Origin: an uncultured bacterium
GTDB lineage: Bacteria; Omnitrophota; Omnitrophia; Omnitrophales; JACQLI01
Length of the DNA: 64,000 bases
Assembly: GCA_964372875.1 (NCBI GenBank)
Contig: CAYJTB010000001.1
Span: forward strand, 27,860-91,859
Direction: 5' to 3'
The translations under genes and the position numbers were made by a program. Shown here piece after piece: positions 9,655-32,670 of the stretch (its first letter is position 1; the number at the start of each line of letters is the position of its first letter). A model generated the notes under the pieces. The model was not told the DNA's origin and did no database searches. It saw only the letters and a list, made by a program, of their open reading frames with translations.

Positions 9655-9693
9655 ACATTGAAATCACAAGCATCTACTGGTTATAATGCTCCC

Positions 9694-10662
9694 ATGTTGC
9701 GTCGTCTTGTCCTTACCCTAGGTTTTCTTATTTTAGGCACCCTTCCTGCCTGGGCCCAGAAGCAGCTTGTCGATCGGGTGGCCGCTGTTATCAACGACGA
9801 AGCCATTACCCAAAGCGAGCTAGAGATGTATCTGCGTCCCATTTATGAAGGCCTGAAACAGCAATTTGAAGGCGAAGAATTAATGAACCGCTTGAATGAG
9901 ACCCGGCTTAAACTTCTAAATCAAATGATCGAAGACCGTCTTGTTTTTCAAAAAGCCAAGGCCATGGAACTCAAAGCGGAGGACAGTGAGATTGAAGAAG
10001 AAGTGGATAGGCTCAAAAAGCGCTACCCTTCTGAGGAGGCCTTGGAAAAAGAAATGACGAGTCAGGGTTACAGCATGTCAGGGCTTCGGGAAAATATACG
10101 CCGGCAAATCCTCATTCGTAAACTTCAAGACATCGAAGTAAAGTCCCGCGTTATCGTCTCACCCCGCGAGATTGAAGAATATTACAAGTCGCATATCGGT
10201 GAATTCGAACAAGAATTAAGAATGAAGCTGCTTTCCATCACCATTCGTAAAAGTAAAGAGGCCGAGGAAAAAGGACTTGTGGATGAAGCGGCGAAGAAAA
10301 AAATCGAATCCGTTGAATTCCGGATCCGGAGTGGCGAAGACTTTGAGGATTTGGCCCGTCAATTCTCTGAAGATGCCCATGCAGCCGAGGGCGGCCAAGT
10401 CGGCTGGGTCCGTAAAGGCGAATTTCTTCCCTCCATCGAAAAAGCCCTTCACGAATTAAACCAAGGAGCGATTTCCCCAGTGCTGGAAACCGCGGCGGGT
10501 TACCATCTTTTTAGGGTGGAGGAAAAAGATCCCGGGAAGGTGAGTTCGTTGGAGGAAGTACGGGAGAAAATTCGTTCGGTCCTATTCCGCGAAAAGGCTG
10601 AAAAGCGTTTCAAGGAGTGGATGGAAGAATTAAAGACCCAAGCCTACATCTCGGTCCGGTGA
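9694..10662 (+). CDS. SurA/PrsA-like periplasmic chaperone with parvulin PPIase domain
   Basis: Signal peptide MLRRLVLTLGFLILGTLPAWA; SurA_N-like helical region; PpiC domain (FEDLARQFSED......GG.VGWVRKGEF); ATG 9694 preferred to track start 9658. Confidence 0.75.
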   Translation: MLRRLVLTLGFLILGTLPAWAQKQLVDRVAAVINDEAITQSELEMYLRPIYEGLKQQFEGEELMNRLNETRLKLLNQMIEDRLVFQKAKAMELKAEDSEIEEEVDRLKKRYPSEEALEKEMTSQGYSMSGLRENIRRQILIRKLQDIEVKSRVIVSPREIEEYYKSHIGEFEQELRMKLLSITIRKSKEAEEKGLVDEAAKKKIESVEFRIRSGEDFEDLARQFSEDAHAAEGGQVGWVRKGEFLPSIEKALHELNQGAISPVLETAAGYHLFRVEEKDPGKVSSLEEVREKIRSVLFREKAEKRFKEWMEELKTQAYISVR

Positions 10663-10671
10663 CGCCTGGCC

Positions 10672-11721
10672 GTGTTGCAAAAACCCATCATTGCGATCAC
10701 ACAGGGCGATCCCGGCGGGGTCGGTCCCGAAATCATCGCAAAGTCCCTCCAGCATCCTGAAAATTTTTCCGGCGTTTTTCTTCTTCTGATCGGCACCGCC
10801 GTGGTTTTTGAATTTGTCCAAGAAGAATTTGGCATCAAACTCCCTTTAAATCCCATCCCGACCTTGGATCCCCAATTTTTAAGAGACGATTCGCTTAATT
10901 TTTTGGATGTGACGGAAGAAGCGGGATGGCTTTTAAAAAAACACTCCCTGCCCCAGCCCGATGAAAATAATCTTTTTGATATCGGCAAAGTGTCTGCGAC
11001 TAACGCAGCCATGGCCTTGGCGGCCTTGAAGGCCGGGGCGTACCAGGCAGCCACGGGTCTTGTCAATGGACTTGTCACAGCACCTGTGAATAAAGAAGCC
11101 ATTCGACTTCTCGAGCCCAAATTTGTGGGGCATACGGAATATCTGGCCAGAATCGCCCGCACCAAAGAATTCGCCATGATGTTTCTCAAAGCTAAGGACG
11201 AGAGTTCGGGACCTTTGCGGGTGACACTCGTGACCATTCATGTCCCTTTAAAAAAAGTTTCCCGGCTCGTCACTGAAGATGCCATTTTAGAAAAAATCCG
11301 TCTCACACATCAGTTCTTAAAAACCCGCCTTAAAATCGCCAAGCCCCGAATCGGTGTTTCGGCTTTAAATCCGCACGGTCATGAGACGGGGGACGAAGAG
11401 GAAAGAGTGATTTTTCCGGCCATCAAAAAGGCCCAAGAGGAAAATATCTTGGCAAAGGGTCCGGTTTCAGGCGACCGGATTTTTTACGATGCCTCCAAGG
11501 GAATTTATGATGCGGTTATCTCGATGTATCACGACCAGGCGCTGGCGCCCTTTAAATTGGCGGCCTTTGAAACAGGTGTGAATTTAACGCTGGGGCTTCC
11601 CTATGTGCGCACATCGCCTGACCACGGAACCGCCTTTGATATTGCCTACCAGGGAAATGCCAATCCCAAATCCATACAAGCGGCTCTCGCGTTGGCAATT
11701 CAGCTTGTGAAGGTTCGCTGA
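10672..11721 (+). CDS. pdxA: 4-hydroxythreonine-4-phosphate dehydrogenase
   Basis: IAITQGDPGGVGPEI, GHTEYLA, NPHGHE, MYHDQALAPFK, VRTSPDHGTAFDIA: PdxA family signature. Confidence 0.9.
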   Translation: MLQKPIIAITQGDPGGVGPEIIAKSLQHPENFSGVFLLLIGTAVVFEFVQEEFGIKLPLNPIPTLDPQFLRDDSLNFLDVTEEAGWLLKKHSLPQPDENNLFDIGKVSATNAAMALAALKAGAYQAATGLVNGLVTAPVNKEAIRLLEPKFVGHTEYLARIARTKEFAMMFLKAKDESSGPLRVTLVTIHVPLKKVSRLVTEDAILEKIRLTHQFLKTRLKIAKPRIGVSALNPHGHETGDEEERVIFPAIKKAQEENILAKGPVSGDRIFYDASKGIYDAVISMYHDQALAPFKLAAFETGVNLTLGLPYVRTSPDHGTAFDIAYQGNANPKSIQAALALAIQLVKVR

Positions 11722-11744
11722 TTTATTTAAATTAAAAGAACTCC

Positions 11745-11877
11745 GTCATCCTGAATGAAGCGACACGTCTTCGAGTGCGGCAAAGCCGCGAAGCCGTGAG
11801 GATCTGCCTTGAGATTCTTTCCGCCAAAGGCGGGCCCGCCTCTGGCGGGCGGCCATAGCCCTCGGCCTCAGAATGAC
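11745..11877. repeat. MITE-like palindromic element, variant termini GTCATCCTGAA...CTCAGAATGAC, intergenic copy
   Basis: Terminal inverted repeats plus internal GC hairpins (GGCGGGCCCGCC...GGCGGGCGGCC); lies between the convergent stops of pdxA and the GT2 gene. Confidence 0.6.
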
Positions 11878-11884
11878 AGTTTGG

Positions 11885-13558
11885 TTAGTAAACCCGGGCG
11901 GCCCTTCTCTTTTTATTCTTTCCGCCTTTAGGCGCGACAAAAAATTCCATGTATTGGCCGAGGGCCAGGCGTGTCTGTGCATCGAGCGCAGGGACAGCAC
12001 CGAAGATGGTGGCAATGGCCGGGACAAGAAGCCATTGAAGAGCCAAGAAAATCTTTTCATAGAAGGGGACTTTCTTGGGGCGTTTGGGCAGGAGATAAAA
12101 ACTCAGGATAATCGAAATCACAAGGCTTGCGATAGCCATGTTGCAGATGACACCTGCCACCCGAGGCGCATTAAAGTGGGCGACGGTCAAATTGAATTCG
12201 TAATTGGGAACAAGGGCAGGCGCCCAGCTTAAGATCATCATGATGGGGGTCCAGGTGGCCCACGAGACATTCATCTCAAGAAGACGCAGCGCTCGTTTAA
12301 ATTTAAGCCAAAACGGGATCTCCTGATGCTTCAGCATGCCCCTCACGAGAATAGGAAAATTTTCGACCCCCCATGCCCAGCGTCTTTTTTGCCGGTAAAT
12401 GGATTGGCAGGTTTTCCACAAGTTCTCACCGATTGCCACATCCATCGACAACGTAACATAAAGAGGCTCCACCCGGTAATCGCCGTTAAAAATAAGAAAG
12501 GCCTTCCAGAAAATGGCAGAATCATCGGAAACCAGATCCACCGGCCAGTAACCTACTTCGACAAGCGCCTGAAAGCTCATGCTATGGCTTGAAAAGGTAA
12601 CCAAGTGGTCCGGGTCAGTGACTTCGATCAGCTGAAAATAAGAAGACCCTGTTTCTAACACTTGGGCAAAAGAGGGGGCCTCCCAGAGATTGTTATGATA
12701 AACGGGGATGGGCTGAAAACTGGTCCGGGTCCGTTTGGGATGAATCAAATAATTATAGGTGAGGCAAGAAAAATATTCGGTACTTACGACCGTATCCGAG
12801 TCAAAACAGGAAACCACAATGTGATCGAGCGGAGTCCCGCGCGCCTCGAAAAATTTCTTGGCCCAACGCGCGGCATACGTGGCGTTGGCGCCTTTGACCG
12901 CCGCCTCTCCTGGGAGCCCATCGGGATGAATACAGTTTTCAAAGTGGAGGAAATCTTTCGCGTATTCTTCTTTTAAGACCTCCGCAATACGGACCGCCTC
13001 TTTTCCTCCGCGTTCCTCAATCGCAAGGACCACCACGATGTGGTTTTTGGGATAATTCGTTTGTCTTAAAGCCTCAAGCGTGGGTTCTAAGACACTCAGA
13101 CCTTCCCAGAGATAGGGAATAATCACGAGATGATAGATATCTTTTGGATTGGGAAAATGGATTTTATCATGTTGGAGGCGTTTCAAAGTTGCGAGATGCC
13201 TTTTTTCTGAAAAATGAATTTTCCAACCAAGCTTGGGATCGCGAATCCTTTTTTGTGTCCTCGTTATGGCGCTCTCTAAATGGAGAAAATCTTGCAGCCG
13301 GTCAAACCATTGAGCGGTTCGTTCAATTTCAAGAAGCACATAAGAGAGCACCAAAAAAATGGTGAAATAAACCAGCCGGAAAAGCCAGTAGAGATCGAAA
13401 AGAATAACCGTCACAACCCCGGCGACCGGGGCCAAGATACATACGAGTGTAAAGGAAATAAGAAGACTCCAGCTAAGCACGGCGGGGAGGATTTCCAGGC
13501 CACGCTCCAACCGCCCTTCGTTTTTACCCAGATTGTGGCGGGAATATTCAAATTTCAT
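11885..13558 (-). CDS. processive family-2 glycosyltransferase (cellulose/chitin-synthase-like), multi-TM
   Basis: D,D,D and Q-x-x-RW motifs (CFDSDTV, YRQKRRWAWG), flanking TM helices; ATG 13558 forms an ATGA overlap with the upstream gene's stop, so it is preferred to the track start 13594. Confidence 0.8.
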   Translation of the reverse strand: MKFEYSRHNLGKNEGRLERGLEILPAVLSWSLLISFTLVCILAPVAGVVTVILFDLYWLFRLVYFTIFLVLSYVLLEIERTAQWFDRLQDFLHLESAITRTQKRIRDPKLGWKIHFSEKRHLATLKRLQHDKIHFPNPKDIYHLVIIPYLWEGLSVLEPTLEALRQTNYPKNHIVVVLAIEERGGKEAVRIAEVLKEEYAKDFLHFENCIHPDGLPGEAAVKGANATYAARWAKKFFEARGTPLDHIVVSCFDSDTVVSTEYFSCLTYNYLIHPKRTRTSFQPIPVYHNNLWEAPSFAQVLETGSSYFQLIEVTDPDHLVTFSSHSMSFQALVEVGYWPVDLVSDDSAIFWKAFLIFNGDYRVEPLYVTLSMDVAIGENLWKTCQSIYRQKRRWAWGVENFPILVRGMLKHQEIPFWLKFKRALRLLEMNVSWATWTPIMMILSWAPALVPNYEFNLTVAHFNAPRVAGVICNMAIASLVISIILSFYLLPKRPKKVPFYEKIFLALQWLLVPAIATIFGAVPALDAQTRLALGQYMEFFVAPKGGKNKKRRAARVY

Positions 13559-15036
13559 GGAGAATCCTTGGAGGCCGCGGAGGCGGAAACCCAATCATCT
13601 ACCAACCGGGGAAGAATATTTGCCGGCTCGAAAAGCTGGATCCGTGACAATCGGCGGGTAAGGGGATCCGCAAAATAAACAAACCCCCGTCTTTCATCCA
13701 AAGCAATTTGAGGGACTCTTTTTGAAATTTGGAAGAGAGGAACCGCTTGGCCATTGCCTTCAAAATCCAACACCTTTACCCAGCCGCCTTCTACAAATAA
13801 AAGATAATTGTCATTGTAAAACCAAGTGAGATTAGAAATTTTTTGCTCTCCCTGATAAATTTTTCGGGGGGAAACGCCGGTTTGGAAAAATTCTTTTTCC
13901 GGTTCACGCTCAAAATCGACCAGCCAAAGTTCAGAATCTTTCCGGTAGACAGCCCGCCTGTTGAAAACGGCCGTGACCACTTCCTCCACTCTCTTGTCCA
14001 GGTAATAGGGAAGCCGGTTGGAAAAAAGCTTGCCTTGATCCGACAAGAAAAGAGCAAACGCCTCATGAAGCGGAGTGAAGATAAAAGGCCGGGAGAGAAA
14101 ATAGAAGGAATAGCGTTCCCCCTCGTCAGGACCGAAAATAAGGTGCGCCTTGGCGGCCGTGCCCAATAACGTTTTCCGGATTTCCCCTTTTTCAGTTAAT
14201 TCGAATAAACGTCTTCGGGCATCCATCACAAAAAGTTTGCGTCTGTCCGTGGTATAGCCCCGAATCCCGCCCTGCACATCAAAGAGAGGAAACCGTTCTT
14301 CAAAATCCATTTTTTTGAGGGTATCGCCTTGAAGATAAAAGAGTGCATTTTTTTGAGAGGGGCCCCAACGAAACTTATCGAAGGGTTCCTGGAGACTTCC
14401 AGCAAGCGGAGTCAGTTCCATGGGACTCAGGAATTTCACAAGAAAAGGACGAATGCCTTCTTTTTGTTTCATGAAGGCCACGGCCTTTTCGCCTAAGGGA
14501 TGCATCAGGACTTCTCCCACTGGGAAATCATATTCGCCTGAAAAATTGGGGAAAATAGGCTCGAGTTGATTTCGCTCAGGTTCAAAAAGATAGAGCCCGG
14601 AGACGTGATCGCCTTGAAGGACTACAAGTTTTCTTGTCTGTGCAGCGTGCCAGATTTTTGTGATGGGAAAATCCGTGAGCTTCTCCGAATCAAACTGAGT
14701 GGGGAAGAGCAAAATATTTTCAAAAGAAAGGACCTTATCGGCTTTGACCTCCACTTGTTTTTGCCAAGGATGCATTCCCGGCAGGCTCAAGTGAAGGTTA
14801 TAAAAACCGGATTTAAGATTACGAATGACGACAGGGGTGGTGTCTTTCAAGACCCGGTGATTGAGCTCAACCTGGGCTTGGGAGGGGTGTGAATTAAGGC
14901 TGATCAGGCCGGTGAGGAGAAGCTTGGAATGGCTGGGGCTGAAAATATAGCCCAAGGCATAGAGCACGGTCAAAGGTGCTATCACAAGGTAGGCTACGGT
15001 AAAAACCAAGAAGATTGCTTTACGTAAAATTCCCAT
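13555..15036 (-). CDS. membrane-anchored PEGA-domain protein, function unknown
   Basis: N-terminal TM helix, then PEGA-like beta-sandwich (AQVELNHRVLKDTTPVVIRNLKSGFYNLHLSLPGMHPWQKQVEV); translationally coupled to the GT2 gene. Confidence 0.6.
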   Translation of the reverse strand: MGILRKAIFLVFTVAYLVIAPLTVLYALGYIFSPSHSKLLLTGLISLNSHPSQAQVELNHRVLKDTTPVVIRNLKSGFYNLHLSLPGMHPWQKQVEVKADKVLSFENILLFPTQFDSEKLTDFPITKIWHAAQTRKLVVLQGDHVSGLYLFEPERNQLEPIFPNFSGEYDFPVGEVLMHPLGEKAVAFMKQKEGIRPFLVKFLSPMELTPLAGSLQEPFDKFRWGPSQKNALFYLQGDTLKKMDFEERFPLFDVQGGIRGYTTDRRKLFVMDARRRLFELTEKGEIRKTLLGTAAKAHLIFGPDEGERYSFYFLSRPFIFTPLHEAFALFLSDQGKLFSNRLPYYLDKRVEEVVTAVFNRRAVYRKDSELWLVDFEREPEKEFFQTGVSPRKIYQGEQKISNLTWFYNDNYLLFVEGGWVKVLDFEGNGQAVPLFQISKRVPQIALDERRGFVYFADPLTRRLSRIQLFEPANILPRLVDDWVSASAASKDSP

Positions 15037-15085
15037 GTTGTTCTAACTCCCTATTGGGCCTCATTTTATGCTACTTGGGGGTCAT

Positions 15086-15114
15086 TTGACAAGTTACGTT
15101 CCAGAGGGTATCTT
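15086..15114 (+). promoter_or_regulatory. candidate sigma-70 promoter for the giant ORF
   Basis: TTGACA, 17 nt spacer, TATCTT, about 200 nt upstream of ATG 15316 in a 280-nt divergent intergenic region. Confidence 0.35.
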
Positions 15115-15213
15115 TTGTTACAGTGAAAGAAACTCTTAAGTGAATGTTCCTAAGGGGTTAGCACCTCGACTCTATTGATTTTTTTGGGGTATGCTCGGTG
15201 CTATGGTGAGCGA

Positions 15214-15242
15214 GATTGAAATTGGCGGTGCCAATTTCAATC
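15214..15242. promoter_or_regulatory. 13-bp-stem perfect hairpin/palindrome in the giant-ORF leader
   Basis: GATTGAAATTGGC ggt GCCAATTTCAATC; could be an operator or an RNA hairpin. Confidence 0.5.
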
Positions 15243-15315
15243 GTGTCGAACCATTAGCAACAACTCCAGGGAATTTTTTTACTCTGTAATTCAGACCTTT
15301 AGGAAAGATTAAACT

Positions 15316-18300
15316 ATGACCCTACGCGCGAAAAATTTTTATCTACGCACTGTCGCAGCTTTCACCGCAATCATTTTTTGCTGGAATAGCCTTGCTTGGC
15401 CGCTTCCCGAGGTTGCGGTTCCCCAGGCCGGCAAAACTTTCGATCTCATTCCAAAAGAACTCGGAACCGTCGATGAATACGAACTGCCGGACGCTTCACA
15501 TTCCGCACCCTTTGTCATACATATTCAAGATCTCCACGCAGCACCCGAAGCTCAAGAAAAAATCCTGGACATTCTTAAATTTTTACATTCAAAAAAGAAA
15601 CTTCTCGTAGCGGTCGAAGGAGCCGCCGGAACGCTTCATCCTGAGTATTTAGATTTCTTTCCGCAATACCCGCGTGTCACAAACGCACTCGTTCAAGATT
15701 TGGTAAGTGAGAGCATGCTTACAGGGCCGGCGTTATTCGCATGGGAGAGGTATGAGAGTAAGCCGTCATTGCACCCGTCATTGCGAGGACGTAAGTCCGA
15801 AGCAATCTCAAATCCTAGATTGCTTCGTCGGGCCTTTGGCCCTCCTCACAATGACAATAGCGTCCAATTCATAGGCGTCGAGACGCCGCGTCTTTATCGC
15901 GAAAACCTTAAAGCCTATCGCGATTTTTTCCAGGATGAAGAAAAAAATCAGCAGGATTTGAAATCTTTCCAAACCTCATTGGAATCGGCCCAAACGAAGA
16001 TTTTCAATCCTGATTTGAGGAAATTTGTCCAAGAAGTCCAGAGACGTAAAGATGGAAAGTTTCAATCGGGAAAGGCCTCGCCCGATCTTGCGGCTTACAT
16101 TCGCTTTCTCGCGGATTCAAGCCGAGATCATTTGGGAGTTGATCTAAGAGATAAATTCGAACAGATCCGTTTTCCCAATCTAACCCGCATTCTTTTCTTG
16201 ATGGAATTCGAATCAAAAATCACTGCTCACCAGCGCCGGGTTCTGCATTCTGAAATTGAATCCAAAAAACTTTTTGATGAAATCACACTTCTCGAAACAA
16301 GACTGCGGCAAATACTGGTTAAAAAGCCGGAAGAAACAAAACTTCTTGAGATCCTTGATGATTTCAAGTTGCTTGAGAAGTTATTCCATTTGGAACTGAC
16401 TCGCGAGGAATATTACCAAGTCGTCAACAGGGTTTTGGAAATCAATCCGTCGAATTTACATCAGCGTTTGGCAACCATTGCTGAGATTGCTTCGACCTCG
16501 TCTGAAATGTTGTCTCGCAATGACGCCGATTACGAAACTGCTCTGCGTTTTTACCGCTTAGCCATTCGCAGAGACAAAGCCCTTCTTGAAAATGCCTTGC
16601 GAGAGGCAGCTAAAACGGAGAACTCGTCTCAAGAAAAACCACTCATCGTTCTTGTTACCGGCGGTTTTCACACTTCAGGGGTGAGCGAGCTTCTCAAAGA
16701 AAAGAAAATTCCTTACGCCGTCGTCACGCCTGCCTTAGCAAAAACCAAAGCCAATCAAGACCAATATCACAAACTGATGTCCGGCAAAATGTTCGCCAAA
16801 GAAGCCTCAAGCGCTTCGCCCAAGAATAACAATCTGGTGTGGGCGCAGATTCTTACAGCAAGAGATCGGTACCCGAGCCTCAATTCCGACGAGGATCAGC
16901 AAAAAATATTTTCCCACGCGACTGAAAAGTCCGGCGAGTATTTTCGAAAATTCTATCCCCAAATCTCCGAACCCAAACTGCAAGAACTTTTATCTCGCCC
17001 CGCCGGATTCTTTTCGCAAATCTCCCGTTCCGAATTGCAAAGTAGGAGCCAGATTACGAATTCGGCCATCGATGGCCGAATTGGCGGGAAAAGGGTACTG
17101 CCTTCACGTTTTCCGCGCTCGGAAGTGCGGGCGGTAGAACAGCGATTAGAAGTCAGTGGTCAGAAGACAGAAGGCTGGAGTTCAAAGATAGGAAAAATTA
17201 TCAGGAATGGCAGCGATTTTGGACTATCGAGGGTTTTCCAGCGTAGTCAGGCGAAGAATTATCGAATTCCAAGCCGCTTAGAAAAATCTCGAGGTGAAAG
17301 AATAGAAATCTCTTTAAAGGTTTTCATCGATAGCAGATCGTGGTCTCCTGTGACAATGATCGTTGCTTTAGCTGAAAGAGCGCATTCCAGCACGGCATCA
17401 TCGTCCGGGTCACGGCAGGCCTTTACCTTTGTTTTAGGTTTGACTATCAAAGCTTTCATATGGATCAATGAAATCATTTCTTCAAGCATTTCAGGCGTGA
17501 TCCATTTCTTGAGTTTAGGTTTTTCCAGTGAGCGAAGAAAGTCTTCCAGTAAGGCCGGAGATAAAGCCGCAATGAACTTGTCTTCTTCCAGGGATTCCAG
17601 AATCGAACGGCAAACGCCCGGAAAGGCGAGTCCGCTCACCAGCACATTCACATCAAGAACGACCCGACGCATACCGTTCCTGCCGGGCTTGCTTGACCAG
17701 ATTCAGAAGCTCTTTTCGGCTGAGAGGGTGTTTCTTTCGGCTTTTATCAACTTTGCGGGTCAGAGAACGGAAGCGTTCTCCCCAGGTCTTATGTTCAAGA
17801 CGACGGATCAGGGTAATGCGGTCACGGGATTTCAATTGATTGATCATGCGCTCAATTTGTTGAATGTCTACTTCCACGGCAATCTTAGGCATAGGATTTT
17901 ATCCTCCTCTTCGAATCAGTATAATTTATCGGCCTTGGCGGATCAAAATCAAAACATTTCTTCCGTTAAGCCTTCTAAGCAAAGTTCGACAGAACCGAGC
18001 CGAAGGGCCGCTTCCGGCCCCGAGAGCCGTCAGTCTCCGATCCTAAGCGTCGATAGACCCGGAGGGGCCCGTGGGGAGGTGCGGGCAAAAGAACAGAGGT
18101 CAGAAGTCAGAGAGCAGAGGATAGAGGTCATAAGTCAGAGATCAGAAGGAAAAATTACTTCGAGTGGCGGCGATTTTGGTAGCGTTCGATCAGGTACATC
18201 ACGCCCCAGGCAAGAAATATCAAAACCAAAACAAGAGACACGGTTATCACGTTTTATTTACCCCTTTTCCGAATCTCTTGGGCAAGCCATCCAAGAAATA

Positions 18301-21300
18301 AGAATCATGATGGCTACAATTATAGAGAGAACAGCCTTGGCCTTCAATGAAGTTTTCCAAATGTTTTCGCTCACCACGAGGGCTGCTAATACAAGGCTCA
18401 CCGCCCTCATGATCCCATCAGCAAACAAATTCCGTCTTTTAGATGGAAAAAGGGTTTTCATCTCAATGCTTCAAGCGCCGCAACCTAACACAGGATTAAT
18501 TTTAAGTCAAATATTATTTTTAGAATATGAAATATCCCGCCGCTCGGAGGTGCGGGAATACATCTCGGATTGGACGGTCTCGACCTTGGAAACGAAACAG
18601 CCGGTTTTGGCGGCGGCATTTTCAACGGACGGGAAGATTTTGGCCGCGGGCGCAAGAAACAACGTTCATCTGACCAACGGAGACCTTCGGAAATGGTCCG
18701 TGGAATTTAGGGCCCACCGCAACGAGATTGCAAAACTTATTTCTTTTCAAAGAGGAAACAGGAATTTTTTCGCCACAGCCAGCAGAATCGGCTCGATCAG
18801 CCTATGGAATTCAAACGGCGGGCTGATCCGGCGGCTGGAGCAGCTTAATCCGGAGGATTTCCAACCTGTGTTAGGGTTATCCGTTTCTAAAAATGGAGAT
18901 TGGCTGGCAGCCACGGACATGGATGTAATGAAGATCTACGATCTTACGGGAATGAGTTCCCCTAAAACAATTCCCATCACGGATCAAAGTCGCAATCATT
19001 TCGTTCAATTTTCTCCCGATGGGACGAGCATCGCCTCCACTTATTACGGCGAAATCCGAATCGAGGATATCAAAACCGGAAAACTCCGCGCGAACCTTCA
19101 TCACGAAGCTTCTCTTAAGAAGTCCATGGATACGTCAGCCTTGGCCTTTTCCAAAGGCGATGATGTCGCCGCGGCCTCCACCGACGGAAAAATCAGGATC
19201 TGGAGATGGAAAGGGGAAAGGCAGCCTCAGGTTTTAGATTTTTTGTCACCAGCCCGCGAAGCAAGCCACCTCATCTTTTCACCTAATGGAAAACGTCTCG
19301 CCGCGTCTACGGCAGATCAGATCGAAATATGGAAACTTAATGGAAAAGTGTGGCGTCATGAAGAAACAATCTATCCGCATCTGGACGCCGTGACAGAAAT
19401 TTTATTTTCACCGGATGCAAAACGGTTTATGGCCGCAGGCATTTGGCACGGAAGCGGGAGAGTCCGAATTTGGTCGAAGGAAACGCCGGCAAGGGCCGAA
19501 GTGCGGACCGACGGCATCCCGACAACCTGGTTCCGGATTTTTAACAGGCTGGATAACCTTAACCGGGAAGTGTGGAAACAAAAAGATTTAGACATCATTG
19601 ACCTGACCAACCAATTGGAGAAAAAACTCATCAGCTTATTCGGTTCGCAGCTCCTTTATGGAATCTGGACTTGGAATACTTCAGTTCGGGAAGTACGGTT
19701 TGGCCTTAGGTCGGGGCCTTTAAGTTTTGAATTGACTGCCAACCCGCATCAGGAAATCCCGGAAAGAGAAATTAAAAGGGGATACACGGTAACAATGAAT
19801 GCGATGCTTACTTCCGCTGCGGAAAGTCAGCATGCAAAAAAATGGGGAGACAGCGAACCGGAAGAAAGGGGAGAGACTTTGCTTGAAATTCCTATTGCAG
19901 AGATCGACCGCTCCCAACCTGTTATCTATTTCGGCAGTTTCTATTTTGATACCGACAAGGAAAAGAAAGAAACGATCATCAAACAGGAAATCCTTTTCCT
20001 TCCCGGAGAGGAGAGAAATTATCAAATCTATATTTGGCATAACAACGCCCTTGAAAAAACTACCTTAGAAAAAGAAGGCGGCAGGACCTACGCGGTATGG
20101 AGAACGCCGGAAGCCGAACCTTCCCTTTCGTTTCAATATGTGGCACTGCATGATGCCCAAGGCAAAGACCTGGGCGAAATAAGCCGGCTCATTCTGAAAG
20201 CCGGAAACTCGGAAACTTACAGGAACAACCTTCAATTTCTTTACGGTCCTATTTGGAGAGACGAAACGTCGAGTTTTTCTCATGGTAGCAGAACTTCCGT
20301 AAAACCATCGGTTTTTGAAGACCTTATCTCTGCTGCGCCGGGCAAAAGGATCGCTGCGCTGCTGGGTCTAGCGATTGAATATCAATATGTCCCGGAAGGC
20401 CAAGTATTCAGCCGGATGCTGCTTACCGAATTGGAAAAATTGGAGGGCCTGCCGTACGGACGAATCGCAGCGCTTCGAGAAATTGCGGAAATGAGTCCCG
20501 AGGAAGCCCATGAAAGATTTAAAGATCCCTACGACCAGCCCAGCGCGATCCCGGCCGTCATGACCCTCGTGGCCAGCCTCGCCCCGCGTCTCCTTGAAAG
20601 AATGAAAAATTGGGATCAGGAATTTTATGAAGAGCTAAAAGGGGTCCTGCAAAAACCGGATCTCAAAACTTTATTCGAGGAAGGGGAGGTCAAATTTTAT
20701 GAGGCGGATCATCTCTGGGCCGCTTCAGATAACCGATCTTTTTTCCCTGGTGTTGTCGCCTTTTCAAGGAGTAAAGACCGGCAAATCATCGTCCCAATCT
20801 ATTTCGGCAACGAACCGAAAGATGAAGACGGCAAAGTCTGGTTTAAAATCTTGGACGCCACATCGCTTGGAATCGAGAATTCAAATGCCGCCACTTACCA
20901 AGTCTACGACCACATGCTCGGGGAATTTTATAAAACACTTCATTCAGGGGAAAAACTTTATCGAGAGGGTTGGAGCATCGGCATTCCGGTCGTCCCGGGA
21001 AAGCTGGACCGGGCCGGGTTTATCCAAAAGGGACGGCATGTTCAATTTTTGGAAATGCGAAGGACCCAATCTCTAACGACGGCGACCCGGATCGGCTTGC
21101 CGGAAAATCTTGTCAAGACACAAGGGATTCTTACGGATCTTTTGAGAGAAATGAGTAAACTCGAAATTTATTTTTTTATCAGTAAGACCGGTGCAACCGA
21201 TCGGCGCATGGTGCCTGTGGATAACGTTTATGAATTTTTTTCATCCTATGCGGGGAAAAAAGGCGAGCATTGGAATGAAATCGTAAGTGAGCCCCTTCAA

Positions 21301-24300
21301 TTGACCGTGAGCTCTCCGGGTTTTAAGCGCCAGACGCTTCGGCATGCGCTTCGGATGATGCAGGAAGCGCTTCAACTTACTTATTCTTTCCCCGGCACTT
21401 TGAAAGGAAATGACCCCCACCTTTCTTTTTATCACGATAAATTAATCGAAGAGACCCAACTTTTAAAAACATCGGATCAAACCGGAAAGTGGGCCCATGT
21501 CGAATTCGAAATCGCAAGCAGCCATTTTGAAATGCCGGATCATTGGGATCAGCCCGCCGAAAATTCGCTGCGTCAAAGAATTCAGGCGTTGCGCGAGGCA
21601 TTAGAAATTCCCTTTGTCCTTATGTTAAAAGCACCTTCCGGCGCCAAGGATCCTTATCACATCGAGCCGGTGGGAAACCTTCACCAGCGGCTTCCTTATT
21701 TTGTTCTCAAAGATGATTTCTTGAAAAATCCTCACGATCCGCGTTTTCCCTATTTTTCAAAAGGCGCTCAACTCAGTTTCGGACTTGAAGCACCCATGGA
21801 TTCGGCAAGATTGGAACAAGTTAGAAATATTCTGGTTGCAAGTCTTGAAGGCCGGATGTCGGCAGCTACCCTTAAGCGTGCCATTGAAGTGACGATGCAT
21901 CAGTGGCAAAGAGAAGACTCCTTCTTTTCCGAATCCCGCTCCGAGGCACGCCGTGTGCCTCGAACGCTTGCGGTGCACCCGGTGCGGTTGGCACCGGGTA
22001 CTCCGCTATACCCGGACCGGTCGGGTCCGGGTGTTGCGGTGCAGAGTCATTGGAACTCTGCCCGTTCAGAAGTTCGAACGGAGAAGTCAGAACGTCTAAC
22101 TCGTTCCAATGCAGGCGAATTACTCAAACCGCGCAGATACCTCAAGAATAAAATCTACGGAATTGGGCGCATTACCGCTGTGGAAGGAAAATTCGGGGGA
22201 AAAGATCCTCAAGGCTCCGTCGAGGTCGCTTTTTTAAATAAACACGGATTCGAAGAAACGAAAGAATTTTCCACCTGGTCACTTTTTCAATTGCCGGAGC
22301 AAAATCCCGAAGAAGCTTTCTTTTCCGTTACCAGGCAAGAAATCGAAGATTTCAAGAATCAAAAAAGACAAGGTCAAGCAGCTTATAAAGAAGAAATAGA
22401 TAAAAAACGCATAGCCCAACGGGAGGGCAGGCAATGGATGGAAGCACAAAGCCCCACATTTTCTCTCTACGATTCGCCTTTCAGCGCAAGAGCCGGAAGG
22501 CCCCTGGCCGCAGATTATAGAAAATTGATGCAAGGAATCCAAGACCGGGCACAGGGCGAGTATCACTTGGGCAGCGCCTCCATCGTGGAACGAAAAATTT
22601 TGTTTGAAATGCTGGGCACTCGCCTGATCCCTAAGACGAACCAATCGGAAACCACCCTTCGGATCAACTTAGGCCGGAGAAAAAAGGAATTCGCAGAGAA
22701 ATTGAAAACGATTTTAGATGAAACGGGCGGGCTAAGCGCCCGGGCCGTGAGCGAGGCGGAAGAGAAAATCATGTCTCCCAAAGATAAGTCCCGTGCGCTT
22801 TCAAGCGAATGGCTGAAATTCCGGGATCCTGTTACCGGTAAATTTGCGACCGAAAAAGATATCAAACGCTGGATCCAGAATGCCATTCCGATCGTTGAAA
22901 GAATCTTAGAATATGAAGTAAAACTTCTCAAATTAGAAAAACAAATTCAAATTCATCCGCGGCCTCTTGCGCGATCCGAAGTAAGGGCCGCTGAAAGTTC
23001 TCCCACAAAGAAGGTCGCATTTTTTAACCTCAGGACCGCGGACGATTCATCCATTGTTTTGCCGCAAAGGATGTCCTATCTTCCCGTCGAGCAGCGGTTG
23101 CCTGACTATAGCGCCTGGCGGATTCGAGTGGGAAGGGAATCGGGAAATTTGCACGCATTTTTGAGAGATGTCCTTGGCCCACGCTGGCATTGGAATGTCA
23201 AAGGAGAAACTAAGGCTTATTTTCTTTATAAAAGTCTCCCGAAGAAATTCAAACAATTTATTGGTAAACGCAAACCGCCGACAGGTTTTGATATGGAAGC
23301 GCTTGGACTTTTGGTGGTTAATCGAAGCGACATTTTTTACATTCCGATGGAAGAAACTGTGAATGAATCCGTGGTAACGGTGTTAGACAAAAATGACCGG
23401 GACGCGATCAATGAATTTATAAGCCATCATGCAATGATCCAAACGGTGCCGCAGAATATCCGGATCTTTCCTCCCGTTCGATATGAGAGCGTCAAGTTTG
23501 GATTGGGAGAGGATCCCGTGTCGAGTCCCAAGCCCGGCTCCATCGAAGTTGTTTATCACCCCAGGCTCATGGTCAATGATCTTGGCAAGGCAGATAAAGA
23601 AATTATTTTCGAAACCAGTTTCGACTTAACACAATTAAGGCCCCGGAAAAAGATTACGGCTGAACTTGAGGGAAGATTCTATCAAGAGTTAAAGTCCAGG
23701 CTGCGCAATACTTGGCAGATCCGCATAGGCAACCGGACCGTGGAAATGCCTCGGGCAAAAGATTTGCCGGCTAAAGTTCAAGACGTGGAAGAAATTTTGT
23801 TGCCGGGGAATAACCGTAAAACGGCGTCTTTACATTTCAATGATGCGGTTTCGTTCTATCTCGACGGAATTTTGATGCGCTCCAATGTGCCTGTACCCAA
23901 GGATATTCACGCCTGGATTTTTTGGAAAACACGGATTCGTTTTAACGATCAGGAAATCTCGGTTGAAACGACCGAAGGCAACAATGTATTAACTTATCGA
24001 ACAGATGAAACCGGTGAACATCTGCGGGTCAATGGCGAACCGACAGACAATAGTGTTTTGCAAAACATGATTCGTCAGATGGGCTCCGCTTTTTCAATCT
24101 TGGCCTTTCAGATGGCGCGCGATCCCGAACAAACGGATTATCTTCGCGAATCCGGCAAAGAAACGATTGATGATGAATTCGACCAATGGCTCGGCCGTTC
24201 TGAGGTGCGGGAAGAAGGACAGCCTGCACAAAATGGGAATGGCCACGCTATCCAGAAAAAGCAAAGAGGCCGCGGGTTCAGGACTAAAGAAGAAGCCTTG

Positions 24301-27300
24301 CAAGCCCTTGCCGAAAGACAGGCAAAAGGTCTTTCCAGTGATCCAAAATCCCTTCAAAGGCATTTAGCCGAAGGCGGCAACCCTACTTTGCTCACCTTCA
24401 TTTATCGATGGAATCAAAAGCACCCGGAAGAACCCATTGAAATGAAATTGTTGCCTACCCGAACCCACAAGTACGAATCCAAAGGAGAAATTATTGAAGC
24501 GCTGGAAAAAAGGCGGCTGGAAAAAGGAGAATCAGCCAATTATCGAATGCAATTACGCCTTCATATAGAAGAAGGCGGCGATCGTACATTGTATCAAGCG
24601 GTTCTGCGTTGGAATCATGATCATCCAGAGGATTTGATCAATCTTCCTTTGGATCCCCATGTGGCGCATGGTCAATTGGGAAAATACCAGACCAAACAAG
24701 ACGGCTTGAATACTTTGAGTGAAAGGAAAAAACAAGGTCTGGGAAATTCAACCAGCGATCTCAGGCAAACTAAATCGGATGGGGGGGATTGGCCTCTTCT
24801 TGTTTTTATTCGCCATTGGAATAAGAAGCATCCGAAGGATCGCATTGCGCTGGAGAATGCTGACCAAAACTTCAACCGCCTGAGTCCTGTTGCGGTCTGG
24901 CATTCCCAGACGCAGGATTTCAAGACGACCGATCAAAAAAGAACCGAATGGTGGCGGGCCTTGCAGGAAGAGGCGGATCACGAAGCTGGAAAAAGGCTGG
25001 TCGAGTCTTTTATTCCTTCAGTCAATGAGATTGCCCAAAGGTTAAGCGGGGGGAGAGATTCGCATTATGAAGCGGATTTAATCCAAAACGGAAATATGAT
25101 TGTCCTTGAGACGATCTATCCCGAGCGTAAAGAAGACCAGTGGAATCCGAGCCGCGGGGTTTCCATGACCGAATTTGTCGAGACCCGTTTAAAGAAAGAG
25201 ATGAGGCACCGGACATTGCAAGAGATACGTTCCAGCGGGAGATTTTCCATCGACGAGCCCTACCGTTTTTCCAAAGGCAGAGAAAAGGAATGGCAGGTTC
25301 CCAGTTATGACGCCCAACCGCAGGAAGTCCGAATTAACAACTTGGCTGATGAGAGGGACAAGCAATCGGGCCTTCCCGTGATTTTGTTTGAGGAAAAACA
25401 TCAAATCGCCCGCGAGATCGGAAAATGGTTAATCAAAAAAGGTTTTCTTAAACAGGTCAAGCAGGAAGGGATTCAGAACCTTGCCGTTTCAATGATCGGA
25501 AGCCTGGGAGTGCTCGGATCGGCAGTCAGAGATAAAAGCGATCTTAATTTGATGGTTGTTACCGACGCAAATGAGTCGCAGGCTGAAGCCCTCGCAGAAA
25601 AACTTGCGCAGTGGATCGGGGGCCGATATCACGAGCCGCAGGATTCGGAGCCTATCCGCATCTCCGTAGGAAAAGAAGGTGATTATGAGCAAGCCATAGC
25701 AGACGGAAACGGCTTCATTAGCTTACTTCAAAAACACAAGGTGGGCACAGACCCCATCAAAGGAATTGCAAGCGTTGAAGTGATTGGAATTCCCGACGAA
25801 GACAACTCGTTTTCCGAAGACTCTCTTACCCGGCAAAAAACGCGGGCGGCTTTTCACCTGGCCTTCCAAGATCCCCGGTTAGCCGAGCAGGCAATCAATG
25901 GGATCCTTGTCCTTGAAAATGCCAAGGGGGCCGCAGAGCGTCTTGCCCAAAAATTGCCGAGCGATCAGGAAAACCTTTTCGGTTATTATGAAAAATTTCT
26001 TGCCAAACAAGCCGCCAATCTTCGCAAGTTGCAGGAATCTTCCATTGACTCAAAAGCAAGGGCCGAGGTGCACCCGAATCCGACCGATTCGGGTACTCCT
26101 CAGTCCTCGCCCGATCAGGCGAGGGCCGAGGTGCGTTCTTCTTTGCCGGAGCAACGGGCGGAAAAGAAGTTAGAAACAAGAAAGTTGGAAATTGGAGCAG
26201 GAATCAGCGGGCTTAGCGGCCGCGTTGAAACATCTAATGGGCGTGTTTTTTCCGGAAGTGATCGATTGCCAATAAAGTCAACGAGATCGCCGCAAAAATC
26301 AGAATGGCAAGGACAGCCGTCATTTAGTCTTCCTCCTTTGAGGAGCTTGCCGCAAAAATCAAGCCCAAATAAAAGCATATCACGAGTCCTCCTAGAACGA
26401 CAAGCCGCCATTTCAGGGAGAGTTTTAGGAAAAGCTCTCCTCCCAGAACTCCTGCTAATAGGACCAAAATCACATGCTGAAACAACTTTGCCAGCCAGTC
26501 CCTCCGGGCCGTTGTCAGGAATATACTTTTCACAAAATAAAATATATAGCAATATCAATTCAGAGTTAAGCGATTTTTCCCGCTCCGATGGTTCGACAAG
26601 CTCACCATCGGTCCTGAGCAAGGCCGAAGGCCGCGTCGAACGCGCCGAGGTGCACCCGAATCCGACCGATTCGGGTACTCCTCCGCACTCACGCCCAACC
26701 GGCGTGAGTACTGAGGTGTCCCTGGCGGCGCCGCCAGGGGCTCCTCCGTCCTCGCCTGAACGGGCGAGGGCCGAGGTGCGGGCAAGCGTTGAAGAAATAA
26801 TCAGGAAGCAGATGCTTTCTGGAGATCTGAAGGCCTTTGAAAAGAATTTCGAATCTTACGACCGTGAAAAGGCCTTTGAACTTTTAAATAGCATTTCGAA
26901 AATTGCCAAGGAAATTTCAGAAAGGATCCGCAAAGGAGAAGAAGAACTGATGGTAGCTGCAAACAATGGCCAAAAAATGCAAGAAATCATTGACGCGGCT
27001 AAAATCTTGGAAAATTTCCCAAATGATAAACAAATACATGGTGTCCACCTATCAGCTATTATAAATTTACAGGAAATCTTCAATCTTACACCAAAAGCAT
27101 TGCCAAGATATCGCAATCTCTTAGAAGCTATTGTTAAACACGCGTCAAAAAAAGAACAACCTCACCAGGCAGCAGCTGAAATTATCGAGAGCTTTGAAGG
27201 AGAACAGCACGCTGATTCCCAACAAGATCAATTTCAAAGGAACGAAGCACTGGAATTTTTAACCCTAGATCTGGATGAAAAAGTTTTTAAAGAAACAGTA

Positions 27301-28719: not shown

Positions 28720-28737
28720 TCTTGTTTCAAACCACGT

Positions 28738-28766
28738 TTGACAAACATGCCAAATTGTATTACACT
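28738..28766 (+). promoter_or_regulatory. candidate sigma-70 promoter of vapBC
   Basis: TTGACA, 17 nt spacer, TACACT; ACGGAGG RBS precedes ATG 28808. Confidence 0.5.
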
Positions 28767-28807
28767 TTACCGATCGATAAGTTAATCGTATGACAACGGA
28801 GGCTTGA

Positions 28808-29017
28808 ATGACACGAGTGACAGTTTCCCCAAAATATCAAATCGTGATCCCTAAAGAAATTAGGGAAAAGTTGGATATTCGGTGCGGACAGAAGATGGCC
28901 GTCGTAACAAGAGGGGAATGGATTATGCTGGTTCCCGATCTGCCTTTGAAACATTATCGGGGGTTTTTGAAAGGTGTGAGTTCAGAGGGGGTTCGTGACC
29001 GAAGGGACCGGTTTTGA
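28808..29017 (+). CDS. vapB: AbrB/SpoVT-type antitoxin
   Basis: MTRVTVSPKYQIVIPKEIREKLDIRCGQKMAVV: looped-hinge-helix AbrB fold motif; 4-nt overlap with the PIN gene. Confidence 0.85.
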   Translation: MTRVTVSPKYQIVIPKEIREKLDIRCGQKMAVVTRGEWIMLVPDLPLKHYRGFLKGVSSEGVRDRRDRF

Positions 29018-29391
29018 CGGTCATCGATTCAAGCGGTTGGATTGAGTTTTTTAGCGAAGGTCCACTTGCCTCCCATTATGAAAAGCATTTGGGGTCTTTG
29101 TCTGAGATTGTCGTTCCTACCATTGTGCTTTATGAAGTCTACAAGAAATATAAGAGAGAAAGCGGAGAGCAAGGCGCTTTGACCGCGGTGTTTCATATGC
29201 AAAAGTGCCGGATCGTACCTTTAACAGAAGAATTGAGTTTGGAGGCGGCGGATTTAAGCCTTCAATACGGACTTGCCATGGCCGATGCGATTGTTTATGC
29301 GTCGGCACTTCAGGAAAAAGCAAAGTTAATCACCAGCGATAAAGCCTTAAAAAATCTGCCTCAAGTGGTTTACTACAGTAAATCGTCCTAA
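29014..29391 (+). CDS. vapC: PIN-domain toxin
   Basis: MTVIDSSGWIEFF..., LSLEAADLS...MADAIVYASA...LITSD: PIN acidic residues. Confidence 0.85.
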   Translation: MTVIDSSGWIEFFSEGPLASHYEKHLGSLSEIVVPTIVLYEVYKKYKRESGEQGALTAVFHMQKCRIVPLTEELSLEAADLSLQYGLAMADAIVYASALQEKAKLITSDKALKNLPQVVYYSKSS

Positions 29392-29397
29392 GATTCC

Positions 29398-30312
29398 TTG
29401 AGTTCCACGCAAATCGCCCTTCTTAAAAAATACGGTCTTGAAGTCCGTGGATTTCGCGGCCAGCATCTTTTGGTCGATCCCAACATTCAACGAAAGATCG
29501 TGGAGTTAGTCGCTCCCAAACCAGGTGAGTGGATCGTTGAGATCGGGCCGGGCCTGGGTGCGCTCACGACTGAGATTTTGGCGGACGGCGCGTCGGTCCT
29601 TGCGATTGAAAAAGACAAACGCTTCTGCGAGATCCTGGAAGGGGAGTTCGGCATCGATTACAAAGGAAAACTCCTGATCGAAAATGCGGATGTTCTCAAG
29701 ACGGATTTAAAAAAATTACTCAAATCGTCGTTACGAGCCCCAAAGAGGCGAAGCAACCTAAGCACGAAGACTGCTTCGGCGCCGCCTCGCAATGACCGGA
29801 TCAAAGTCATCTCGAACCTTCCTTACTATATAACTTCACCTGTGCTTTTCTGGCTGATCTCCAATCGTGCATCTGTGGAAAAAGCGGTTTTGATGATGCA
29901 GGCTGAAGTCGCGGACCGTTTGCTCGCCCAGCCGGGAGATAAAGATTATAGCCGGCTTACCTTGGGAGTCCGGTATTACGCCGAAGTCCACCGTGCTTTT
30001 GAAGTTTCCCGCAATTGTTTTACTCCGAGGCCCGATGTCGATTCAACGGTCGTGACGATCGATTTTCACCCGCCGTCCGCATTCCCAAAAGGAATCGACG
30101 AGGCATTTCTTTTCCATCTCATTCAAGTAGCCTTCGGTGCCCGGCGAAAAACCCTACTCAATCGTCTTACGCAAGATTCAAAAGTAGGTCGCCCTCGTTC
30201 CCAGCTCTTAGAAATTTTTCACAAGCTCGGCATCCCCGAAATGGCCCGCGCTGAAGAGCTCCTCCTCAAAGACTTCATCTCATTGACCGAATTTCTTCAA
30301 CCTAAACATTAA
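29398..30312 (+). CDS. rsmA: 16S rRNA (adenine1518/1519-N6)-dimethyltransferase, carrying an in-frame repeat insertion
   Basis: GQHLLVDPNI, VEIGPGLGALT SAM motif, SNLPYYITSP; TTG start. Confidence 0.9.
   Translation: MSSTQIALLKKYGLEVRGFRGQHLLVDPNIQRKIVELVAPKPGEWIVEIGPGLGALTTEILADGASVLAIEKDKRFCEILEGEFGIDYKGKLLIENADVLKTDLKKLLKSSLRAPKRRSNLSTKTASAPPRNDRIKVISNLPYYITSPVLFWLISNRASVEKAVLMMQAEVADRLLAQPGDKDYSRLTLGVRYYAEVHRAFEVSRNCFTPRPDVDSTVVTIDFHPPSAFPKGIDEAFLFHLIQVAFGARRKTLLNRLTQDSKVGRPRSQLLEIFHKLGIPEMARAEELLLKDFISLTEFLQPKH
29727..29796. mobile_element. MITE-like element in-frame in rsmA
   Basis: GTCGTTACGAG...GAAGCAACC..CTGCTTCGG...CCTCGCAATGAC, translated SSLRAPKRRSNLSTKTASAPPRND, placed just before the NLPY motif. 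Confidence 0.6.
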
Positions 30313-30328
30313 AATTCATTATCCGGAA

Positions 30329-30425
30329 GGACACGAGTCTCGTCGTCACTCGTAACGCCCCTGCGAGACAGTCCCCTTCTATATTGTTTCTTTTCAAGGA
30401 TCGGGGCAAGTCCCCGTGGGACGTC
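30329..30425 (+). repeat. structured intergenic repeat, copy R1 (left half of the ~180-bp unit)
   Basis: GGACACGAGTCTCGTCG.CACTCG.AACG.CCCTGCGAGACAGTCCCCTTCTATATTGTTTCTTTTCAAGGATCGGG is near-identical to the reverse complement of 32770-32847. Confidence 0.8.
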
Positions 30426-30548
30426 CTCGTTCGTGCGTCCGGCCTCGTTCTCCGCCAAAACGCGTGGCGGATCCCTGCCCACTCGGCCTTCCGAACGCGC
30501 CTCGACTGGTCCTTCCGCTGATCGTAACCTAGCAGAATCCCCAAGCCT

Positions 30549-30690
30549 GAGACGGTCCCCTTCATTAATTTTTATTTTCAAGGATCGGGACAGCCCCCTT
30601 GTGGGGCGGCGTAGCGGCCGTTACGGAAAAATCCGGAAAAGATTTTTCCGTAGGCCCACGAGTGAGGGCGACTCCTTGTCCGTTTCTATC
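30549..30690 (+). repeat. structured intergenic repeat, copy R2
   Basis: GTCCCCTTCATTAATTTTTATTTTCAAGGATCGGGACAGCCCCCTTGTGGGGCGGCG...CGGAAAAATC cggaaaa GATTTTTCCG...CCTTGTCCGTTTC; matches the reverse complements of 32488-32574 and 32671-32770. Confidence 0.8.
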
Positions 30691-30735
30691 TTGTCGCCTG
30701 AACGTTCGGCGAAGGCTGTGGGGATTCTCCCTGCG

Positions 30736-30765
30736 TTGACAATAAGAATTGCGGCATGCTACGAT
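30736..30765 (+). promoter_or_regulatory. candidate promoter immediately upstream of gatC (possibly leaderless)
   Basis: TTGACA, 18 nt spacer, TACGAT; the -10 box ends 8 nt before ATG 30773 and there is no SD. Confidence 0.3.
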
Positions 30766-30772
30766 CCTTGGC

Positions 30773-32475: not shown

Positions 32476-32487
32476 TGCCAAAGAGCA

Positions 32488-32574: not shown

Positions 32575-32670
32575 CATGAACGGGTGAGGAAATCAAAAGG
32601 TGATCATTCCAAATGAACGTGAACAGATAAGGAAACAGTAATAATCTGGGAAGATGCACACAGGTATGAA

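Follow-up and report, generated by a model that had tools for sequence, protein, structure and literature searches.

How does a single reading frame stay open for more than a thousand nucleotides over DNA whose opposite strand appears to carry complete genes of its own? The question is raised by a giant open reading frame (ORF) in a stretch of 64,000 nucleotides from an uncultured Omnitrophota bacterium (GCA_964372875.1, contig CAYJTB010000001.1), hereafter the window, in whose numbering positions are given unless another locus is named. The modules of this ORF are separated by a peptide motif, R-[S/A/G]-E-x-[R/H] (RSExR for short), and three of the inter-junction segments hold no sense-strand module and contain self-contained opposite-strand genes instead, among them a toxin–antitoxin (TA) pair. 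On the sequence evidence gathered here, this antisense-cassette arrangement is real, recurrent and under selection, and it appears to fit no known kind of system.

A preliminary description of this DNA had proposed a PIN toxin, an overlapping upstream antitoxin with its own ribosome-binding site (RBS) and TATACT box, and a small protein with two transmembrane (TM) segments, all on the minus strand between 17116 and 18541, and each of these elements was recovered (Table 1). The toxin matched the PIN_3 profile PF13470 over positions 1–114 of 115 (E=8e-18; 65.8 bits, cutoff 27), and a 19-sequence alignment (A5) showed residues D7, D88, D91 and D110 to be invariant and E43 and E96 to be conserved, acidic positions that, from general knowledge of PIN domains, we take to form the active site. 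Its 239 homologues are annotated as PIN-family TA toxins and include a tight clade at 62–84% identity; ordinary PIN_3 proteins reach at most 45%. Orthologues of the antitoxin (78–82 amino acids) lie upstream of every PIN gene of the close clade, and no Pfam family was assigned to the antitoxin. The TATACT box belongs to a longer promoter-like site, and this site and the RBS are conserved over six aligned TA cassettes. Judged by its relatives, there is nothing unusual about the TA pair as a PIN_3 type II system; its arrangement is what stands out. That the minus-strand genes are functional is something we infer from their intactness and conservation, and the proposal stood well for the toxin and antitoxin, which have homologues and show purifying selection, but less securely for the 67-residue two-TM ORF. 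Since the database search found nothing for the latter, it is the weak resemblance among two-TM ORFs, described below, that argues for a real gene.

Across 17116–18540, the giant frame contains no stop in 475 codons (1,425 nt), as had been claimed, against 28 and 23 stops in the other two plus-strand frames and 30, 17 and 35 in the minus-strand frames. For comparison, the antisense stop density in 28 host genes was 0.027–0.052 per codon, and the longest open antisense run was 195 codons. In the PIN gene and the 67-residue ORF, a host-frame stop is possible only at Tyr after NNY or at His or Gln after NNT, and in the antitoxin only from TTA, CTA or TCA codons. When the minus-strand proteins were held fixed and synonymous codons were redrawn, the probability of no host-frame stop was 0.10 for the PIN gene, 0.11 for the antitoxin and 0.47 for the 67-residue ORF, and first-order Markov surrogates of the three non-coding stretches gave 0.12, 0.014 and 0.19. 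The product, a combined chance of ~2e-6, comes from a conservative null, because it conditions on sequences already shaped by stop avoidance. The host frame is free of stops because the antitoxin uses no TTA, CTA or TCA codons and, in part, because the toxin lacks Tyr and Gln; its translation over the antisense genes is Ser/Arg-rich and of low complexity. The naive expectation of many stops in an unselected frame proved overstated for the coding parts, as the antisense frame was open over the gene alone in 15 of 62 unrelated PIN_3 loci (probability of no stop 0.1–0.2 by resampling), but the frame is still open beyond chance once the non-coding parts, the flanks and other lineages are included. 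The open-frame signal lies in the whole unit and, above all, in its recurrence.

The TA pair was found antisense within a long stop-free frame, with an in-frame RSExR on both sides, in seven further contexts (L039, L040, L041, L042-45, L047/48 and L049), on contigs assembled independently and taken from the NCBI, JGI, ENA and Logan collections. The toxins of these recurring cassettes are 57–84% identical, with saturated synonymous sites. In L049, the order is head domain, RAELR, module, RAEIR, antisense TA pair, RSEVR and next module, and its head module is only 23% identical to that of the window. The frame of L048 is open through the entire 2.26 kb, and opposite to it lie the PIN pair, an AF2212-like/PemK (MazF-type) pair scoring above the Pfam cutoffs and a 73-residue two-TM ORF, all within the same stop-free frame, so that several cassette types share the antisense lifestyle. 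Furthermore, L039 has an 89-residue ORF and a 71-residue two-TM ORF in further inter-junction segments, and a common architecture and a weak sequence pattern link the two-TM ORFs found in the window, L039, L048 and L043-45.

Comparison of the seven or eight TA lineages gave dN (nonsynonymous divergence) of 0.15–0.41 with saturated dS (synonymous divergence), and dN/dS was far below 1 in the minus-strand frames. The minus-strand proteins are thus under purifying selection, and with dS saturated the lineages are effectively independent in their synonymous choices. In all eight TA lineages, exactly one antisense frame, always in the same phase, contains 0 stops, against 5–17 in the other two. Under uniform synonymous choice, the per-lineage probability of no stop was 0.011–0.059 for the antitoxin and 0.16–0.46 for the PIN gene, and the product over the eight lineages was ~1e-18. 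Signs of selection were seen on both strands, on the minus strand from homology and dN/dS and on the plus strand from same-phase stop avoidance in eight lineages. The possibility that the arrangement reflects chance, composition or an assembly artefact, with spurious minus-strand ORFs or a chimeric contig, draws on the frequency of open antisense frames in unrelated PIN_3 loci; it is effectively refuted by the two probabilities from the simulations, by a toxin that scores above the Pfam cutoff and has free-standing homologues, by the low dN/dS and by recurrence in independent assemblies.

Adaptation of the toxin itself is suggested by a modest signal in the close PIN clade, which is depleted in Tyr and Gln. 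The number of stops expected in the used phase was 1.39 for this clade and 2.41 for other PIN_3 proteins (p=1.4e-4), whereas the in-register phase showed no reduction and the third phase had more (11.9 vs 8.1). An open plus-strand frame might alternatively be intrinsic to the TA family, for instance as a third protein antisense to the toxin and antitoxin, and the cassette might merely have landed in giant ORFs. In L035, L036 and L037, the antisense frame is indeed open for 226 codons, exactly spanning the TA pair, with stops on both sides, and the phase is the same in all lineages; the wobble positions of the PIN gene and the host frame coincide in this phase, which, derived from the sequence, is the most permissive for dual coding. 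We nonetheless regard this explanation as improbable: the host frame also lacks stops over the non-coding stretches and promoter region and over the two-TM and MazF-type cassettes, which are unrelated, the antisense translation has the low complexity noted above, and the flanking RSExR motifs are in frame with the antisense frame in seven contexts.

The third antisense segment lies further downstream in the giant ORF, and its 69-residue two-TM ORF would escape antisense stops with a probability of only 0.002–0.014 by codon resampling. Its boundary repeats, which are 90–94% identical and form near-perfect hairpins, read in frame as AEVHPNPTDSGTP.... Antisense ORFs filtered for a Shine–Dalgarno (SD) sequence in 25 head-module loci resembled noise, except for the TA and two-TM genes of the PIN-bearing contigs, and a sliding scan of codon usage was too insensitive to find antisense cassettes in other giant ORFs, as it barely flagged the known PIN gene.

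What bounds these segments is the junction motif. In the six-frame translation of the window, R-[S/A/G]-E-[V/I/A]-[R/H] occurs 15 times in the giant frame and essentially nowhere else, and the corresponding DNA pattern was observed 17 times against 3.7 expected; the junctions proposed at 17116, 18070 and 18541 read RSEVR, RGEVR and RSEVR in the giant frame. Giant frames carry the motif at ten times the density seen in the other long ORFs of their loci. Over 95 sites, the first Arg and the Glu are invariant, as is the last Arg apart from His in two sites; position 2 is Ser, Ala or rarely Gly, and the surrounding residues vary, with Pro, Ser, Ala, Gly and Glu abundant. At some of these sites, AGY codes for Ser or AGR for Arg, and such switches of codon family, together with invariant R, E and R in deeply diverged genomes, argue for selection on the peptide. 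Two other roles were considered and set aside. A role of the x codon as an internal start would fit its being often GTG or ATG, but Leu codons at this position are mostly CTT, CTG and TTA, and Ala and Thr codons also occur; an SD-like GGAGGTG within RSEVR is not general.

In an alignment of six TA cassettes, all read in the direction of the host frame, the homologous region opens with the junction, only a few bases away from the stop codon of the PIN gene. It covers the two genes with their RBS and promoter-like boxes and extends no further, and the next junction follows 60–170 nt on. The modules that flank the TA cassette differ between loci. In L035/36, the genes on either side of the cassette (L035 1551–2323; L036 1098–1870) are ordinary and separately terminated; the cassette is flanked by two identical 15-mers, CGCTCCGAGATGCGG, that are mutually out of frame, and the next gene begins at the ATG inside RSEMR. 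These 15-mers and the direct repeats around the third cassette point to insertion or exchange at junction-coding DNA. The preliminary description had also noted a related flank after each junction, and the two copies share 76% identity over 51 nt and 82% over 33 nt. Its first unit is better parsed in two, a 42-codon mini-module (17116–17241) that begins with a fresh RSEVR and resembles the 3' part of the second unit, followed by the TA cassette with its own decayed junction, RSQAK. The mini-module is not present in the TA cassettes of other loci; the ~110-nt flanks had no copy in loci L001–L034 and gave no convincing structure when folded on the minus strand.

The giant ORF belongs to a family that is defined by its N-terminal (head) module of 600 amino acids. 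This module has few relatives in protein databases and no match in Pfam or in a PDB sequence search, but it shares the fold of the EreA/ChaN/Tiki/TraB group, with RRSP, a MARTX (multifunctional autoprocessing repeats-in-toxin) effector, among the fold matches. In sequence comparison, H74 and E101 are invariant and GGFH is kept except for one GGYH variant; these residues may belong to a catalytic His/Glu/His constellation. A scan with one genome per species found 34 loci with the head module, nearly all in metagenome-assembled genomes of Candidatus Omnitrophota; the frame that matches is a giant one in most cases, reaching >3,900 codons and often cut short by the contig end, and carries repeated RSE[V/L/M/I/A]R. 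Each family member has a membrane-anchored EreA/ChaN/Tiki/TraB-like start followed by unrelated modules in one frame, joined by R-[S/A]-E-x-R. In some genomes, two giant ORFs of this family stand side by side (L003 1–8655; L006 16736–21670; L007 16996–21678). Clustering of the flanking ORFs revealed no conserved protease or recombinase neighbour, only an ABC-type ATPase, whose gene lies just upstream of the giant ORF on the same strand in seven loci, and housekeeping genes. The head domain is the only candidate hydrolase in the giant ORF and a candidate protease. The RSExR motifs come after the tail of the N-terminal module, which has low predicted local distance difference test (pLDDT) scores; this tail and the variable motif contexts are compatible with cleavage and are not evidence of it.

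On balance, we think it probable that the antisense segments are mobile cassettes adapted for read-through, which act as filler modules in a modular giant protein, and that the junctions are probably processing sites. Since the downstream modules depend on the upstream start, ribosomes would translate the giant mRNA straight through each cassette, yielding a filler peptide bounded by two junction motifs. If the junctions act as processing sites, or at least as disordered linkers, the filler would be harmless, being cut out or tolerated, and the downstream modules would still be made; the N-terminal hydrolase-like domain would be the candidate protease. Cassettes may enter and move by recombination at junction-coding DNA, and the TA cargo may stabilise a repeat-punctuated gene against deletion or may simply be selfish.

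Several points weigh against this reading. Read-through translation, cleavage at RSExR and protease activity of the head domain are each steps that we infer, and the N-terminal anchor suggests export, which is hard to square with a chain of 4,467 residues that includes filler. The 67-residue ORF has a weak RBS and no homologue in a word-based database search, and this giant gene had no close allele among the sequences searched. The TA cassette is not inside a long ORF in L035/36, L050 and L051, although the antisense frame of L035 stays open over precisely the length of the cassette. Finally, the junctions show a codon preference beyond ORF usage (consensus CGY-TCS-GAR-NTG-CGG), with GTG as the x codon 23 times against 8.9 expected and ATA 6 times against 0.7, and a weak excess of hairpin stability (p=0.005), so that part of the junction role may lie at the DNA or RNA level.

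The last two observations also favour a DNA-level cassette system, similar to an integron or shufflon, in which the junction is a recombination site, the modules are separate proteins that start at or near junctions, and the frame is open only for ribosome movement, either avoiding Rho-dependent polarity or supporting coupled re-initiation. The out-of-frame junction copies in L035/36 and the gene start at RSEMR fit such a system, as do the strongly structured direct repeats around the third cassette and the resemblance of TA pairs and small ORFs to chromosomal-integron cargo. We consider it unlikely, however, given that the codon-family switches and invariant residues point to peptide selection, the x codon in RSELR genomes is mostly CTT, CTG or TTA and not a usable start, the roughly six genes scanned to each side of the giant ORF include no recombinase, the junction has no attC-like core sites, and avoidance of polarity alone needs no single continuous frame. 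A bolder form of the read-through reading, 'translational integrons', would hold that any junction-bounded, stop-free cassette can be inserted through recombination at the DNA that encodes the junctions, including whole antisense operons such as TA systems, that one start serves the whole array, that the Tiki/TraB-like head hydrolase cuts at the junctions to release separate proteins and that TA operons police the array against deletion; this we put forward as a speculative possibility.

Literature searches on the motif, Omnitrophota polyproteins, the giant-ORF family, nested TA genes and antisense cassettes in giant ORFs returned no prior description, and neither the PIN protein nor the giant protein was on record in a protein collection when looked up by exact match; the family to which this giant ORF belongs is not previously described. 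The TA pair resembles PIN_3/VapBC-like type II systems in its PIN toxin with acidic residues, its small overlapping upstream antitoxin and its own putative promoter and RBS. Unlike those, the operon is nested completely in an opposite-strand gene, it is delimited by a peptide-coding junction motif, and its codons, and partly its residues, are constrained to keep the host frame open. As in nested antisense genes of bacteria, opposite-strand frames of the same DNA both show selection; to our knowledge, the described cases are single short ORFs inside ordinary genes, with both products thought to matter, whereas the present host gene contains an entire operon, regulatory region included, as well as other cassettes, and the host-strand product looks like filler, with selection apparently acting only on the absence of stops.

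Sedentary chromosomal integrons carry short unrelated cassettes, inverted TA cassettes with their own promoters and many small ORFs of unknown function, and their TA cassettes have been suggested to stabilise the array. The present system shares the short unrelated cassettes, the promoter-bearing inverted TA pair, the small ORFs and the proposed stabilising role. It differs in that the boundary consensus has no RYYYAAC/GTTRRRY attC cores, the junction hairpins are short, no integrase was seen among about six neighbouring genes on each side, and the cassettes of the giant ORF are joined in one frame by a conserved pentapeptide. A giant ORF of unrelated modules with a boundary peptide and a repertoire that varies between genomes is likewise found in MARTX and polymorphic toxins (VENN in CdiA, PxxxxDPxGL in Rhs), and autoprocessing between modules is the known logic of MARTX; Pfam, however, found no CPD (cysteine protease domain), RTX (repeats-in-toxin) repeats, Rhs or CdiA features in the giant ORF, and we know of no MARTX, CdiA or Rhs system with antisense genes inside its ORF. 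Rickettsia palindromic elements and inteins are also foreign insertions tolerated through frame-keeping, and taking the filler out of the finished protein would follow an intein-like logic. In contrast to both, the insertions here carry complete, expressed-looking genes on the opposite strand; in contrast to inteins, Pfam found no Hint domain in the giant ORF, the filler is the antisense of real genes and not a protein domain, and its removal, if any, would be by cleavage at the flanking motifs and not by splicing.

A 2023 preprint on Omnitrophota giant genes stated that the cleavage points of these proteins are unknown. RSExR provides candidate processing sites for them, and the conserved head domain comes from a fold group that includes known proteases. 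The arrangement would offer the clearest natural example of a reading frame under long-term selection solely for lacking stops over complete opposite-strand genes and, being replicated in independent lineages, would allow theories of antisense overlap and dual coding to be tested cleanly. It also points to a new way for TA systems and other small genes to reside in genomes, and to a blind spot of standard gene callers, which in such contexts miss one or the other, the TA genes or the giant ORF.

Table 1 Features of the giant ORF and its antisense cassettes (window positions unless a locus is named; TA, toxin–antitoxin; TM, transmembrane; aa, amino acids).
Feature	Position	Strand	Details
Giant ORF	15316-28719	+	4467 codons/aa, single unbroken frame; ORF list and translation
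N-terminal (head) module	15316-17115	+	hydrophobic anchor at N-terminus, EreA/ChaN/Tiki/TraB-like fold; family-defining
Junction J1	17116-17130	+	RSEVR (CGC TCG GAA GTG CGG); 7-bp hairpin with flanking bases
Flank copy 1, mini-module	17131-17241	+	direct-repeat families D1, D6, D11; related to 18085-18179
Decayed junction RSQAK	17242-17256	+	directly 3' of PIN stop codon; aligns with RSExR column of five other TA cassettes
PIN_3 toxin gene	17259-17672	-	137 aa; no Tyr, no Gln; PF13470
Antitoxin gene	17653-17892	-	79 aa; overlaps toxin start by 20 nt; no TTA, CTA, TCA codons
TA-operon RBS GAGGAGGA	reverse complement of 17902-17909	-	read from sequence
TA promoter-like site TTGATC-17-TATACT	17946-17918	-	consensus scan
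Junction J2	18070-18084	+	RGEVR; 7-bp hairpin
Flank copy 2	18085-18179	+	direct-repeat families D1, D6, D11
Second in-frame RSEVR	18097	+	inside flank copy 2
67-aa two-TM ORF	18258-18461	-	two hydrophobic segments (hydropathy); no Tyr, Gln, His
Possible promoter of 67-aa ORF	18482-18510	-	TTGACT, 17 nt, TAGGTT; read by eye, not flagged by consensus scan
Junction J3	18541-18555	+	RSEVR
WD40 module	18541-19491	+	starts at J3; WD40 Pfam matches
Left boundary repeat	26056-26135	+	two tandem hairpins; RAEVH and RAEVR; D5 (94%), D9 (90%); DNA fold z=-3.4
Third antisense segment	26122-26640		minus-strand gene inside; 80-140-nt direct repeats on both sides
69-aa two-TM ORF	26324-26533	-	related to small ORFs in L039, L048, L043-45
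Right boundary repeat	26641-26780	+	four tandem hairpins; RAEVH and RAEVR; DNA fold z=-5.9
Additional antisense genes of L048	L048 8-229, 876-1450		AF2212-like antitoxin and PemK/MazF toxin; 73-aa two-TM ORF
Palindromic element copies	15775-15855; ~29750-29830; 34945-35038; 36142-36300		hosts: head domain of giant ORF, KsgA, TsaD, ORF 35673-36692

The remaining modules of the giant ORF are diverse and include, by Pfam, a WD40 propeller. An exhaustive HMMER search with the module at 22972–24195 (408 amino acids) found zero relatives among 1.84 billion representative proteins. The module at 24196–26055 has three tandem repeats of ~65 amino acids (…ALxxLxERxxxGL…RWNxxHPxD…), followed by a stretch resembling a nucleotidyltransferase motif (GSLGVLGSAVRDKSDLNLMVV), and its Pfam match was a weak Arm-DNA-bind_4 only. 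Two inter-junction segments, 21937–22062 and 27961–28080, are ~40 codons each with no obvious gene on either strand, and may be remnants of lost cassettes or plain linkers.

The locus is chromosomal, lying between surA-pdxA and ksgA-gatA-gatB-tsaD, and the neighbouring products are SurA, PdxA, a glycosyltransferase of family 2 (GT2), a PEGA protein, VapBC, KsgA, GatA, GatB and TsaD. In many bacteria, surA-pdxA and ksgA are contiguous; here a block consisting of GT2 and PEGA-domain genes on the minus strand, the giant ORF and vapBC is wedged between them (9658–15036 and 28808–35362 beside the giant ORF). The vapBC pair, MazE-like/PIN, lies at 28808–29391 on the plus strand, after the giant ORF. 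An Rfam scan of 15000–29500 gave no match at E<=0.1. A palindromic element resembling a miniature inverted-repeat transposable element (GTCATTGCGAGG...AAGCAATCT/AGATTGCTT...CACAATGAC) occurs in frame within coding genes of the window. The copy in the head domain encodes SLRGRKSEAISNPRLLRRAFGPPHNDN, is missing from homologues and has pLDDT <50, and these elements within coding genes are reminiscent of Rickettsia palindromic elements.

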